A stretch of 64,000 nucleotides of DNA from the NCBI GenBank assembly GCA_000165345.1, contig CM000436.1, forward strand, positions 800,001 through 864,000, given 5' to 3'. Shown in pieces: positions 16,747 through 39,246 of this stretch (position 1 is its first letter; the number at the start of each line of letters is the position of its first letter). Under the pieces are notes generated by a model. The model was not told where the DNA came from, did not search any database, and was given only the letters and a program-made list of their open reading frames with translations. The translations under genes were made by a program, and so were the position numbers.

Positions 16747-18303
16747 ATGACAGAACAGAATAATGATTTAGATTTCAAAGATGACAATATCAAAGATTTG
16801 CAAAGAAAGGAGGATTTAGAGGCAAATATAATTTCTCAAAACTACAGTATAAAAATTAGAGATACATCAAGAAATATGAGTTATACGAATAATAGAAGAG
16901 ATGAAATTTTCATGCAGTTACAAACAGAATTGTTTGATATTCTTTTAGAGATTTATAACATAATTCCTACATGGGGCTCATTTAAAGAAAACTTCTATTT
17001 TCATTGGAAGAGAATTATTGGTGCCTGCAATTTCAAAGATCTTCATGCATATAGGCTAATTTTTAGATGCTTGGGAAATTTACGCCCTTCTTCAATGCCT
17101 ATATTTATTCTAAGGCCAATAATTAAACAGCTAGATGAGTATAGAAAAATTTCAGAGCCTGAATATTCTCCATCTAATTTTGAATTTAACCCAAATATAC
17201 ACAGGAGCTTAGCTACAACTTCTAATGGCCCAATTGCCATGCTACAAAATTCACATCCCGTTAAAACATGTGCCCAAATTCAAAGTAAAAAAGAAATATT
17301 GCTTGAAGATAAAATAGGACGAGATTTTTTCTCCGATAAATGTAATTCTAGCTTTTTTCATGAAATTATTAAAGAAAATGCAAAATATTCAGGATTAGTA
17401 TTATCAGGATTAAATGAAGCAAATGTCATTCCATTTTCGTTACTAGAAAATGATATATTCAACTCTGTGCCGTCACAAAATAATAGTAATCTAATTGATA
17501 ATATCTACAATTCAATAAATAAGAATTTCTATTTTTCGATAACTAGACAACAAAACGGTAGTTTTACAAATGATAATGAAAAATTAGCCGAAGACAAGAA
17601 GATAAAAAATGAGCTAATTGATAGAAAGGAGCACATTCTTTCGGACGATTATAATTCTAATGAATTTATTAATAATTCATTGGTTATTTCGAATAATTGG
17701 AATTCAAACTCTGCAGTCTCTTCGCCTTATGGTTCGGTTTGCACTGCACCAACACTTTCACCTACAGAATATAAAATTGAAGGGCCTATAATGGCAGCTT
17801 TTCAACATATTCAAGCAGTAGCAGTTGCAACAGCAGTTGCAAATAATTCTAAAAACAAACTAAACTCCGCAGGTAATTTATCAAACGAACAAAATACAAT
17901 ACAACCAAAGAAAAGACCGAGGAGGAATGGTGAGATTCAAGGGGTATATTTCGACAAAATACGCAAACTTTGGCGTGCAAACTGGAAAGAAAATGGACGT
18001 GTAAAAACAAAAGGGTTTTCAGTTTTTCAATTTGGAGATGAGGGCGCAAGACAAAAAGCTATTGAATATCGTAAGAAAATGGAAAAAGAATTCTATGTCG
18101 TGCCTAATACAAAGCTTTCTAGAAGTTCAAGCAATAGTGGAACTATCTATATTAATACAGAAAAGACGTTTCAAAACAGTATCTCACCTAAAAAAAAAGA
18201 TATTGAACTTAGTTCAAATTTAAATAACACTTTGAGCAGTTCAAAGCTAAACTCTGAAAACACAAAATTATCAGAAAACACCAACTCTAATTTTAACAAT
18301 TAA
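16747..18303 (+). CDS. ApiAP2 transcription factor (single AP2 domain near the C-terminus)
   Basis: The AP2/ERF-like domain reads RPRRNGEIQGVYFDKIRKLWRANWKENGRVKTKGFSVFQFGDEGARQKAIEYRKKMEKEF. The rest of the protein is low-complexity and N-rich, as is typical of apicomplexan AP2 factors. Confidence 0.8.
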   Translation: MTEQNNDLDFKDDNIKDLQRKEDLEANIISQNYSIKIRDTSRNMSYTNNRRDEIFMQLQTELFDILLEIYNIIPTWGSFKENFYFHWKRIIGACNFKDLHAYRLIFRCLGNLRPSSMPIFILRPIIKQLDEYRKISEPEYSPSNFEFNPNIHRSLATTSNGPIAMLQNSHPVKTCAQIQSKKEILLEDKIGRDFFSDKCNSSFFHEIIKENAKYSGLVLSGLNEANVIPFSLLENDIFNSVPSQNNSNLIDNIYNSINKNFYFSITRQQNGSFTNDNEKLAEDKKIKNELIDRKEHILSDDYNSNEFINNSLVISNNWNSNSAVSSPYGSVCTAPTLSPTEYKIEGPIMAAFQHIQAVAVATAVANNSKNKLNSAGNLSNEQNTIQPKKRPRRNGEIQGVYFDKIRKLWRANWKENGRVKTKGFSVFQFGDEGARQKAIEYRKKMEKEFYVVPNTKLSRSSSNSGTIYINTEKTFQNSISPKKKDIELSSNLNNTLSSSKLNSENTKLSENTNSNFNN

Positions 18304-18480: not shown

Positions 18481-19078
18481 TTACGAAATGCCTGTGTGAG
18501 CACGCAAAATTTCATCAGTTGTTTTCCAAATTTTAGTGGTTAGTTGCTTCAATAATTCCTCTGCTTCCTCCTAAAATTTGTCATATAAAAATGTTGCTAA
18601 ATTTGATTACTTACCGGTGTGGGAGTATCTTCTTGACCTTCTGAGTTCTGGTTCAACTCCTCGCTCTCGTTGTCCTCTTGATCGTCATCATTCTCAATAT
18701 CATTAGACGACTGTATCAGCAGCAGCCTAAAAGCCAATAAATCGATTTGGTAATGAGTGAAAACTCACCTTTTATTATTGAATAAATTAGATAAATCTTG
18801 AATATCGTTTTCCAATTCTCCCAATGAAATGAAAGCTTGAAGTTTCTCTGCATTATAAAAATAAGGTTTCTTTCGCACAATATTCACGAATCCTTACCTT
18901 GTAAATGCGATTCTGGAGCTTGAACAAGAATCTCTCTCATTTTATTAACTGTTGACTTCAATTCTTCAACAATATTCGAGGTCCCTGCAATTGGTTCAAT
19001 TTTGCCAGGGGCTGCAGAAGAAAGTGAAAATATTATACAAAGAATAGTTAAAAAAAAGACTCTCATATCAAATGTCAT
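18481..19078 (-). CDS. Small secreted acidic protein of about 156 aa, four exons: 19078..18898, 18847..18769, 18726..18615, 18570..18481 (stop TAA at 18483..18481)
   Basis: Exon 1 (track ORF 18884..19078) encodes the signal peptide MTFDMRVFFLTILCIIFSLSSAAP and ends at CAAG|GTAAGG. Three introns of 50, 42 and 44 nt follow, with GTAAGG, GTGAGT and GTAAGT donors and AG acceptors. The frame is maintained across all junctions, giving ...ESHLQ/EKLQAFISLGELENDIQDLSNLFNNK/RLLLIQSSNDIENDDDQEDNESEELNQNSEGQEDTPTP/EEAEELLKQLTTKIWKTTDEILRAHTGIS*. Confidence 0.55.
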
Positions 19079-19176: not shown

Positions 19177-20244
19177 TTAGTTAATTTTTGATTGGTAAAT
19201 TATTATATCAACTAATTTTTTAATTCCGATTGAAGATGGCGACTGGGGGAATTTTTCGCAGATAGAGAGACCCAAATCGCATACGTACAGTAATTCTTTA
19301 TCCCATGGTATTTTATTAAGATATTCTACTTCCATATTGTCACACATATCTTTAACTGAAGAATCATGCTCAGCATTTTTAAAAATCATCCCCATATTTT
19401 CAACAACCCCAAGGATATTTAAACCCACTTTCTTACAAAAATTAATTTCCTTCCTAACATCTTGTAGTGCAATTTCTTGCGGAGTGGTTACGATCAGAGC
19501 TCCATTCACATTTGAACCATTTAAATATGAAACTATAGAGAGATGCTCGTCGGAAGTACCTGGAGGAGTATCAATGATTAAGAAGTCTAATTCACCCCAA
19601 ACTACATCTGAAAGGAACTGTTTTATTAACCCATTTTTTTTTGGGCCTCTCCAAATTACAGCATCATCAGATTGAGGAAGTAAAAATGCAGTGGACATAA
19701 CTGAGAGATTATCATTAACATATACTGGGGACCAGCCATTCGCAGAAATGTGTACATCATTGCCTTGCACTCCCATCATTTTTGGTGCGGATGGGCCGCA
19801 AATATCGATATCTAAAAGCCCAACATTAAATTTTTTCGATGATAAACACCATGATATTTGCGAAGATATAGTTGATTTTCCTACACCTCCTTTACCAGAT
19901 AGAACCAAAATAATATTTTTTATTTTTGATAAGTTTTCGATATTCTCTGTAGGCTTTTTCTTTGCTTGTCCAGAAGCACATATTAGTGCATTTGGGCATC
20001 CTGCACAAGAGTCTGCGATTCCTGCATCTGGAGAATCAACTCCTACGCAATTGCCAATTTGAATATTAAAATGATTTTGGTATTTAGAATTAACTGAATC
20101 AGTTTTTATATAAGAAATGGAAAAAATAATAGATTTTAAATAGTTTATTGTTAACCTGGAAAATGTCTTGAAATAATCCTTAAATATAATACCAGATATT
20201 AGTCCACCGAAGAAAATTGCAATTCTATTAGAGGCTATCTTCAT
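19177..20244 (-). CDS. NBP35/Mrp-family P-loop ATPase (cytosolic Fe-S cluster assembly factor) with an N-terminal hydrophobic anchor
   Basis: The protein has an N-terminal CxxC cluster (DSCAGCPNALICASG), a Walker A/deviant P-loop (ILVLSGKGGVGKST), the ParA/Mrp core and a C-terminal CxxC (CPQS...). The first ATG (MKIASNRIAIFFGGLISGIIF) at about 20244 is followed by a hydrophobic segment. The track start at 20286 is TTG. Confidence 0.85.
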   Translation of the reverse strand: MKIASNRIAIFFGGLISGIIFKDYFKTFSRLTINYLKSIIFSISYIKTDSVNSKYQNHFNIQIGNCVGVDSPDAGIADSCAGCPNALICASGQAKKKPTENIENLSKIKNIILVLSGKGGVGKSTISSQISWCLSSKKFNVGLLDIDICGPSAPKMMGVQGNDVHISANGWSPVYVNDNLSVMSTAFLLPQSDDAVIWRGPKKNGLIKQFLSDVVWGELDFLIIDTPPGTSDEHLSIVSYLNGSNVNGALIVTTPQEIALQDVRKEINFCKKVGLNILGVVENMGMIFKNAEHDSSVKDMCDNMEVEYLNKIPWDKELLYVCDLGLSICEKFPQSPSSIGIKKLVDIIIYQSKIN

Positions 20245-20448
20245 AATTGCATTTAAAAGTAAATTTATAACAGAATTTTGGCGCAATAAAATTTCAAAAA
20301 AAATATTATTTCAATTATTATGAGTAGATTAGATAAAGATAAAGAGTTTTCAAGGTGAGTTATAGATATATAGAAAATAGCGTTTTATTCATTATTTTGT
20401 CTTAACTTTCAACTTTATTATTCAGTATTACCTTACCTCTAGGTTTTA

Positions 20449-37560: not shown

Positions 37561-39246
37561 ATGAGAAAATTTAAACTAATTTATGAACCAAATACTCTCA
37601 TAACAACCTTTTCAAAAAATAAATTTAGCAGATTTAATCAAATATTGAAGCTTTTAAAAAATTCTTCTCAATTTATCATTTCTGAAAAAAAAACAGGTTT
37701 ATTTTGGATCTCACATAAGAATAAAGGAGATTGGCATGAAACAGATAATTTAATACCTAAATATTCAAACTATAAGGACCCTAAAATAAGTATAATTACA
37801 AAAGTAAAATCAATAGAAAATCACCTTGCGTCTATAGAAACATCGAAAAGAGTAGAAAAAAAAGTGCCAACAAATAGCGCGGTTAGATTATTTCATGTGA
37901 GCAATATGGTAATAAAGCTCCTACTTGGATCTGCGAAAGAAACGTATAGTGATTATAAGCAGGGAAATGGATTTTCAGTAAAGGGAAAACTATTAGGAAA
38001 TGAAAATATTGAAGCAGTAAATCAAACAGTAAAGTTACTAAGGGGGGTAGCACTTAAGTTTGCACAGTTTATTAATCTAAATAATATTGGTATTCCTATT
38101 GAGTTATCGAATGCACTAAATGATGCAAAAAAAAATGCGTTTGCAATTCCAATCTGCCAAGTACATAAATTAATGGAATCAGAGTTTGGGAATGGTTGGA
38201 AGGAAAACATTTTTGCCTATTTTTGTGAAAATCCCTTTGCAGCAGCTTCAATTGGACAAGTACATCATGGAATTCTTAAAGATGGGCAGTCTGTAGCTGT
38301 AAAAATTCAATATCCTAACATAATGAAGGCTATTTTATCGGACATAAATCTATTTCAATTTGTAAACAGTTATTGCCGAATTTTCCCAAAAGGGCTATTT
38401 ATTAATGAGCTGTTGGCTGAGTTAAAAAAAGAATTAATTTCTGAATGTAATTATGAAAATGAACTTTTATTTTTGAAATATTACAGGGAAAAAATCATTC
38501 CCACTATGAATATGTATGATTTAAAAGTGAATTTTTATATACCAACAGCATTTAATCATCTTTCTACAAAAAAAATTTTGACAACAGAAAATATGAATTC
38601 AGAAAATACAATTGAAATCTCATCTTTGTTCCAAGATAATGTAAAAAGTACATTTGGCTTACAAAATACTATGGAGTTGAGGAATTCAATAGCAGAGTCA
38701 CTTCTTTATTTGACATTACATGAACTTTTTATTTTTAGAACGCTTCAAACAGATCCAAATCCTGCAAATTTCCTGGTGGATTTGAGGAAAAATCGAATAA
38801 TATTGCTGGATTTTGGCGCAGTAAGATCATATTCAGAGGATTTTGTTGATGATTACATTAACATGATTAGATTCGCAATTAGTGGATCGGAACCTGATAT
38901 CATTAAACAATTCATTAAAATGAAATTTATTTTGGGGACTGAAAGTGAAGATTTCATTAAATTGCACTGTGATGCAATCAAAATGGTGTCTGAGGTGTTC
39001 AAGTATTCTCCATCCCCATTTGACTTCTCAAAAAGTGAAATAGTTGCAAATATTTCAAAAATTGTCCCAAATATATTGCTAAACAGAGAAACGCCCCCTC
39101 TTTCTGATATTTATTCACTACACAGGCGTATCGCTGGATTCTTTATAATTTGCAGTCGTCTTGGAGCAGCGATAAACTCACATAAAATATTCAATCAAGT
39201 ATTGGAGAAATATAATACGAGAAGAGTTAAATCAACTCCTAACTAG
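37561..39246 (+). CDS. ABC1/ADCK (UbiB/COQ8-like) atypical kinase, probably mitochondrial
   Basis: The ABC1 signature reads AAASIGQVHHGILKDGQSVAVKIQYPNI. The kinase-like core with HELFIFRTLQTDPNPANFLV and ILLDFGAVR (DFG) follows. A basic N-terminal presequence begins at the first ATG at 37561; the track start at 37525 is TTG. Confidence 0.8.
   Translation: MRKFKLIYEPNTLITTFSKNKFSRFNQILKLLKNSSQFIISEKKTGLFWISHKNKGDWHETDNLIPKYSNYKDPKISIITKVKSIENHLASIETSKRVEKKVPTNSAVRLFHVSNMVIKLLLGSAKETYSDYKQGNGFSVKGKLLGNENIEAVNQTVKLLRGVALKFAQFINLNNIGIPIELSNALNDAKKNAFAIPICQVHKLMESEFGNGWKENIFAYFCENPFAAASIGQVHHGILKDGQSVAVKIQYPNIMKAILSDINLFQFVNSYCRIFPKGLFINELLAELKKELISECNYENELLFLKYYREKIIPTMNMYDLKVNFYIPTAFNHLSTKKILTTENMNSENTIEISSLFQDNVKSTFGLQNTMELRNSIAESLLYLTLHELFIFRTLQTDPNPANFLVDLRKNRIILLDFGAVRSYSEDFVDDYINMIRFAISGSEPDIIKQFIKMKFILGTESEDFIKLHCDAIKMVSEVFKYSPSPFDFSKSEIVANISKIVPNILLNRETPPLSDIYSLHRRIAGFFIICSRLGAAINSHKIFNQVLEKYNTRRVKSTPN

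Follow-up and report, generated by a model that had tools for sequence, protein, structure and literature searches.

A predicted N-terminal signal anchor and a deleted CPxC loop in the NBP35 orthologue of Cryptosporidium parvum

Canonical Nbp35/NUBP1 of yeast and human is a soluble protein with a PF10609 domain, the P-loop sequence GKGGVGKS and a ferredoxin-like CX13CX2CX5C motif, and without an N-terminal anchor. The CX13CX2CX5C motif defines NBP35/NUBP1 and forms the stable N-terminal [4Fe-4S] site; a second motif, CPXC, is the binding site of a labile bridging [4Fe-4S] cluster, and yeast Nbp35 requires it (PMC8007109). In Toxoplasma gondii, NBP35 (TgNBP35) lies on the mitochondrial outer membrane and faces the cytosol (PMC12674569). 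Apicomplexan and chromerid Nbp35 proteins have N-terminal extensions predicted to be mitochondrial, with localisation confirmed for Toxoplasma (PMC7980591), and a predicted transmembrane domain has been noted in Plasmodium falciparum NBP35 (PfNBP35) (PMC11476691). Apicomplexa lack the Cfd1 partner (PMC11838916). Here we describe the NBP35 gene of Cryptosporidium parvum (CpNBP35), which lies in a window of 64,000 nucleotides from GenBank assembly GCA_000165345.1 (contig CM000436.1, positions 800,001 to 864,000 of the forward strand); coordinates below are those of this window. An earlier note on this stretch had proposed that CpNBP35 is anchored by a hydrophobic N-terminal extension, as described for Toxoplasma on the mitochondrial outer membrane, and the literature confirms that precedent. 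Taken as a whole, the evidence is best explained by an NBP35 that is likely tethered at the mitosome by an N-terminal signal anchor, with its ATPase domain in the cytosol. Like the canonical proteins, CpNBP35 has PF10609, GKGGVGKS and CX13CX2CX5C; unlike them, it carries an anchor segment and has lost the CPxC-bearing loop.

The gene and the two motifs that mark its product as a member of the family are listed here.
19177 to 20244, minus strand: NBP35/NUBP1 homologue, a complete single-exon coding sequence of 355 aa plus stop; exact protein match
19978 to 20049, minus strand: CX13CX2CX5C ferredoxin-like motif, residues 66-89, found by regular expression; C66, C80, C83 and C89 are invariant in the alignment
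19873 to 19896, minus strand: deviant Walker A motif (P-loop) GKGGVGKS, residues 117-124; G117 to S124 are invariant in the alignment

The product (355 aa) matches an annotated C. parvum protein, EAK89489.1/QOY40075.1, without a single difference; that protein carries the label 'MRP like MinD family ATPase' and, in UniRef, 'Cytosolic Fe-S cluster assembly factor NUBP1 homolog'; its 90% cluster also takes in C. hominis, C. meleagridis, C. tyzzeri and chipmunk genotype I. Residues 107-346 match PF10609 (NUBPL/ParA iron-transfer, the Mrp/NBP35 P-loop NTPases; E 2.3e-83), and the best match to a solved structure is CFD1 (6g2g, E 2.7e-66). In a ranking by similarity rather than a tree, the named top homologues are NBP35/NUBP1 of apicomplexans, fungi and animals, not the paralogues HCF101, Ind1 or Cfd1. 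The protein also contains CX13CX2CX5C, the motif that separates NBP35 from Cfd1, Ind1 and HCF101. Together with the exact annotated match, these results bear out the earlier identification of the gene as NBP35, and on sequence criteria the C. parvum protein is an NBP35 orthologue.

The hydrophobic N-terminus belongs to this protein only if translation begins at its first ATG. The open reading frame given in the earlier note (19177 to 20286, minus strand) is present, and its end at 20286 is a mechanical boundary, a TTG inside an E2F-like box; the real coding sequence is 19177-20244. Translation from ATG 20244 opens MKIASNRIAIFFGGLISGIIFKDYF, exactly as had been quoted, and the public C. parvum gene model starts at the same ATG and includes the anchor. 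The in-frame stop upstream is TGA 20313-20311, and ATG 20244 is the sole in-frame ATG between this stop and residue 156. Residue 156, the next methionine, lies past both CX13CX2CX5C (66-89) and the P-loop (117-124). Only a start at 20244 can therefore give a functional protein, so that the hydrophobic N-terminus must be translated, and no transcript that began after the hydrophobic segment could code for a functional NBP35. A downstream start yielding a soluble protein was rejected on the position of this next methionine.

The elements of the N-terminal extension are as follows.
20182 to 20238, minus strand: predicted N-terminal signal-anchor helix, residues 3-21 (IASNRIAIFFGGLISGIIF), called from hydropathy over 19 residues, the alignment and AlphaFold2
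20182 to 20223, minus strand: charge-free core, residues 8-21 (IAIFFGGLISGIIF, 14 aa), bounded by R7 and K22
20191 to 20205, minus strand: GxxxG, residues G14-G18, inside the anchor
20050 to 20181, minus strand: basic juxtamembrane stretch (KDYFKTFSR), amphipathic helix and flexible linker, residues 22-65

Kyte-Doolittle hydropathy averaged over 19 residues (KD19) reaches its maximum of 1.68 at residues 3-21, and the ten residues that follow the core (KDYFKTFSRL) have a net charge of +2. The AlphaFold2 model (mean predicted local distance difference test score, pLDDT, of 81) shows residues 5-58 as one helix, with pLDDT of 86-89 for residues 11-40; residues 52-64 are disordered (pLDDT <50), and the globular domain then follows. 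The peptide on which the earlier note had based its hydrophobic helix is thus correctly read, and hydropathy and the structural model both predict a helix there. A second transmembrane helix at residues 28-46, the best-scoring segment on the Wimley-White octanol scale, was rejected: it contains R31 and K37, is poorly conserved, and would place the ATPase domain on the wrong side of the membrane.

That the segment is more than a product of chance is indicated by comparison across homologues. An uncharged hydrophobic core occupies the same position in 10/10 Cryptosporidium sequences, in which 30-70% of its residues differ between species. The ratio of nonsynonymous to synonymous substitution rates (dN/dS) is 0.13-0.43 for the transmembrane codons, compared with 0.5-1.6 for the linker and 0.04-0.08 for the enzyme core, and by this measure the transmembrane codons are under purifying selection. 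Alignment of the N-terminus with TgNBP35, a check named in the earlier note, places the C. parvum segment in register with the Toxoplasma transmembrane domain. In the main alignment (22 sequences, MAFFT), it is also in register with Chromera Cvel_19821, the gregarine Lankesteria, Cardiosporidium and Symbiodiniaceae, with the consensus F-x-x-G-x-x-x-G. GxxxG occurs in the anchor helix of 55/56 homologues with a long hydrophobic N-terminal extension, including those of P. falciparum and Perkinsus. For P. falciparum, Babesia bovis and Perkinsus, the NBP35 sequences come from S1 Table of PMC11838916. A search for Plasmodium and piroplasm orthologues, made with a profile of the C-terminal third of apicomplexan NBP35s, yielded only short canonical NUBP1 fragments. 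Among 57 homologues, 86% have a positive C-terminal flank, and the mean charge is +1.86. The helix was seen in every Cryptosporidium species retrieved and in Plasmodium, Babesia, the gregarine, Cardiosporidium, Chromera, Perkinsus and dinoflagellates, in line with the conservation across Apicomplexa suggested earlier. Judged by this alignment, the N-terminal helix of CpNBP35 is homologous to the validated Toxoplasma anchor.

The linker behind the helix (residues 25-65, 20050-20172, minus strand) evolves almost neutrally, with 8-44% identity between Cryptosporidium species, and its length is nonetheless steady at about 40 residues. Fast sequence change at a steady length suggests a spacer that is constrained by length only.

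Several observations weigh against a membrane anchor in C. parvum. Shuffles of the 65-aa, I/F/L-rich extension reach a KD19 of 1.68 in 12% of cases (P = 0.12), and the longest charge-free run gives a shuffle P of 0.07, also for the single sequence. The 14-aa charge-free core is the shortest among 57 homologues (median 23) and is closer in length to the h-region of a signal peptide than to a classic transmembrane span, and a span of 19 residues would bury N6 and R7. The hydropathy maximum lies just above the 1.6 rule of thumb, so that proxy measures are borderline, and the summed biological hydrophobicity is unfavourable at +3.6 kcal/mol, by a simple sum with no position term. A dedicated transmembrane predictor might call the segment borderline. 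The validated Toxoplasma segment itself has a KD19 of 1.66 and is also unfavourable by the same biological-hydrophobicity sum (+2.3 kcal/mol). Among published predictions, C. muris Nbp35 is listed as mitochondrial at low confidence only (PMC7980591). A literature search found no localisation, transcript-start or proteomic data for Cryptosporidium NBP35, and CpNBP35 is not mentioned in a mitosome paper citing the hyperLOPIT set, where a spatial-proteomics assignment was sought.

Since single-sequence statistics give no support, the argument for an anchor rests on conservation, and it is conservation that bears on the proposal that the hydrophobic N-terminus is a by-product of AT-rich codons (I/F/L/K/N-rich) with no targeting role, in a protein that is soluble or peripherally attached. 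The non-significant shuffle and the shortest core in the family speak for such a by-product, and Aw et al. are said to have found in 2021 that T. gondii NBP35 forced into the cytosol did not lose its function altogether. Composition would have to account, however, for a segment that stays in register and charge-free across Cryptosporidium species differing at 30-70% of its positions, that is also kept in GC-rich Toxoplasma and in dinoflagellates, and whose codons appear to be under purifying selection. We therefore regard a purely compositional origin as very unlikely.

T. gondii NBP35 (TGGT1_280730) is the closest described system. It shares with CpNBP35 an orthologous ATPase core (56% identity over 79% of the query), the F-x-x-G-x-x-x-G helix in register with near-equal hydropathy, the basic C-terminal flank, a retained CX13CX2CX5C motif and a deleted CPxC loop. 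The two differ in the charge-free core, which is 14 aa in C. parvum and 27 aa in T. gondii, and in the linker to the ferredoxin-like motif, which is about 44 aa and not low-complexity in C. parvum and about 80 aa in T. gondii. They also differ in the organelle concerned: Cryptosporidium has a genome-less mitosome, and localisation is experimental for Toxoplasma only. In general architecture CpNBP35 resembles signal anchors of the Tom20/Tom70/OM45 type, a class taken from established knowledge, in having a single moderate N-terminal helix, a positive C-terminal flank and a predicted cytosolic bulk, with no sequence relationship to them.

A basic C-terminal flank is the classical feature that separates mitochondrial from endoplasmic reticulum (ER) signal anchors. 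It bears on the possibility that the N-terminus serves as a signal peptide or signal anchor for the ER and directs the protein to the secretory pathway or ER rather than to the mitosome. The layout of the C. parvum N-terminus does resemble a signal peptide, with a basic n-region (MKIASNR), the 14-residue core and then a polar stretch, and tail- or signal-anchored proteins often sort between ER and mitochondria on subtle features. No small-x-small cleavage site follows the core, however; the conserved flank is the mitochondrial determinant; the segment is homologous to an anchor that targets the mitochondrial outer membrane in Toxoplasma; and in the ER lumen an ATPase for Fe-S assembly would have no access to its partners in cytosolic iron-sulfur protein assembly (CIA). 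An ER destination is accordingly considered unlikely.

The extension could also be read as a cleavable matrix-targeting presequence, with NBP35 acting inside the mitosome. Apicomplexan Nbp35 N-termini have been scored as mitochondrial targeting signals, and Mastigamoeba has an organellar Nbp35 paralogue (PMC7980591). An uncharged core of 14-23 residues with GxxxG is, however, not an amphipathic presequence, and TgNBP35 was shown to face the cytosol (PMC12674569); import into the matrix is highly improbable. All three alternatives, composition, ER and presequence, are less likely than a mitosomal anchor.

For membrane insertion, target membrane, topology and the role of GxxxG, as for attachment to the mitosome in Cryptosporidium, we infer the following arrangement. 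Residues ~3-21 would insert as a signal anchor into the mitosomal outer membrane, with the N-terminus facing the intermembrane space and the remainder of NBP35 in the cytosol. The basic flank, the helical stalk and the disordered linker (~40 residues) would keep the CX13CX2CX5C site and the ATPase domain close to the surface of the organelle. Since helices classically pack against each other through GxxxG, the two anchors of an NBP35 dimer may pair, and the conserved motif probably packs them together. Cryptosporidium retains the ATM1 exporter and mitosomal iron-sulfur cluster assembly (ISC) (PMC11476691), and NBP35 at the mitosome would thus sit where the exported intermediate emerges. There it would receive the ISC-derived, ATM1-exported sulfur or Fe-S intermediate at the organelle surface.

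An anchored Cryptosporidium NBP35, as put forward in the earlier note, is therefore supported, and it is already known: the N-terminal NBP35 anchor has been stated in print as conserved across myzozoan NBP35s, which together with the C. muris prediction means that the proposal is not new. Anchored NBP35 is an accepted myzozoan trait, and the proposal as it stands adds little more than confirmation. What might be new concerns the C-terminal part of the protein.

19387 to 19392, minus strand: junction G285/M286, where the CPxC-bearing loop (10-11 residues) is deleted; VENMG-MIFKNAE compared with VENMSGFVCPNCxxxxxIF

In canonical Nbp35/NUBP1 and in Cfd1, CPXC lies just after the ENM strand. HMMER aligns VENMG-MIFKNAEHD of CpNBP35 opposite VENMSGFVCPNCSEC of CFD1, with FKNA facing CPNC, and MAFFT opens a gap of 10-11 residues exactly where other eukaryotes carry GFVCPxCxxxx. 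The C-terminal CPXC, likewise a mark of family membership, is thus missing from the C. parvum protein, and none of the Cryptosporidium sequences retrieved has a CxxC within 24 residues of ENM. The deletion is shared by every Cryptosporidium retrieved, Toxoplasma, Hammondia, Neospora, Besnoitia, P. falciparum and B. bovis, and also by the NBP35s of Cardiosporidium, Lankesteria and Chromera. No conserved replacement cysteine was found in the C-terminal third across this group, and Chromera and Cardiosporidium have no cysteine there at all. Dinoflagellate and Perkinsus NBP35s resemble CpNBP35 in the N-terminal GxxxG anchor and linker and differ from it in keeping the loop: CPxC/CxxC follows ENMSG in 31/56 anchor-bearing sequences, among them Perkinsus and dinoflagellates (Symbiodiniaceae). 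'A CXXC motif' has been ascribed to PfNBP35 (PMC11476691); the sole CXXC in the PfNBP35 sequence examined here lies inside the N-terminal motif.

One further anchor-bearing NBP35, the MMETSP transcript P0072, has a loop of full length after ENM (KGFTDATGVVHDIF) with no cysteine in it. It may stand midway between the forms found in dinoflagellates and in apicomplexans.

With the CPxC loop absent, CpNBP35 is predicted to be incapable of binding the canonical labile bridging [4Fe-4S] cluster, which would leave the N-terminal site alone. Apicomplexan HCF101 keeps CxxC (T. gondii, B. bovis, Eimeria tenella), and PMC7980591 places HCF101 in the cytosol in those lineages that have lost the loop. Tentatively, and with more doubt than confidence, we suggest that apicomplexan and chromerid NBP35 is an unconventional scaffold: an ancestral loop deletion would have left a receiving or assembly module with the N-terminal site only, and cytosolic HCF101 would have taken the Cfd1-like role of carrying a transferable cluster. 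In the literature searched, which excluded the primary TgNBP35 paper, we found no mention of CPxC-loop loss in apicomplexan NBP35 and no statement that HCF101 has taken over this role. The deletion and its coincidence with cytosolic HCF101 might thus be the sole novel part of these results.

Upstream of the gene, two further features were recorded.
20276 to 20286, no strand assigned: E2F/DP-like box TTTTGGCGCAA (TTGCGCCAAAA on the NBP35 sense strand), in the middle of the 75-nt intergenic region
20320 to 20354, plus strand: first mini-exon (MSRLDKDKEFS-) of a divergent Fcf2-domain gene, then a GTGAGT intron donor

The E2F-like box that the earlier note had placed just upstream is indeed found there, as TTTTGGCGCAA at 20276-20286 on the plus strand, 31 nt before ATG 20244. 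Within it, TTTGGCGC at 20277-20284 fits TTTSGCGC and [C/G]GCGC[G/C], with T- and A-rich flanks and a position upstream of a gene, by the E2F/DP definition for Cryptosporidium promoters (PMC3734150). TTGCGCCAAAA lies at -40 to -47 in the intestinal species C. parvum, C. ubiquitum, C. canis and C. felis, amid a spacer that diverges, and is absent in the gastric species C. serpentis. Conservation within a diverging spacer makes the box very likely functional, as far as comparison of sequences can indicate. TTTGGCGC is not enriched in the 64-kb window (2 found, 0.87 expected); the only other exact copy is at 38812-38819 on the plus strand. E2F-like motifs are the commonest C. parvum promoter motif, upstream of ~2,400 genes (PMC3734150), and dominate C. 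parvum open chromatin by ATAC-seq, much of it at bidirectional promoters (bioRxiv 10.1101/2025.01.17.633476). Because the motif is so common in this genome, the box says nothing specific about NBP35.

The Fcf2-domain neighbour was recognised by conserved synteny and Pfam PF08698 in four species, and conservation of its first exon (11-12 codons) and of the GTRAGT donor extends to C. ubiquitum, C. felis and C. serpentis. A single-intron model of the C. parvum gene runs into a stop codon. With the mini-exon starting at 20320, the NBP35 and Fcf2 ATGs are 75 nt apart and the box is central. NBP35 transcription probably starts in a 75-nt bidirectional promoter that is shared with the Fcf2-domain gene and centred on the E2F-like box.

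Two other neighbours lie on the downstream side of NBP35. A small open reading frame just downstream (18884-19078, minus strand) has a signal-peptide-like start, MTFDMRVFFLTILCIIFSLSSAAPG...; in other Cryptosporidium species the syntenic position is taken by a called gene of 139-146 aa that has no Pfam match, so that the C. parvum counterpart probably contains an intron or is longer. A 518-aa open reading frame at 16747-18303 (plus strand) is a candidate AP2-domain gene by synteny only, as C. ubiquitum, C. canis and C. felis have at this position an AP2-domain gene of 501-519 aa convergent with NBP35. No tRNA genes were found in the 64-kb window.

An anchored CpNBP35 would support a picture in which the mitosome of Cryptosporidium is retained mainly to supply Fe-S assembly in the cytosol, and in which the first CIA factor is stationed at the surface of the organelle. 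Loss of the CPxC loop would be of greater consequence. In yeast Nbp35 the CPxC motif is essential, and a whole parasite phylum without it implies that onward cluster hand-over is organised differently there. Such an altered hand-over bears on the targeting of the essential CIA pathway in Plasmodium, Toxoplasma and Cryptosporidium.

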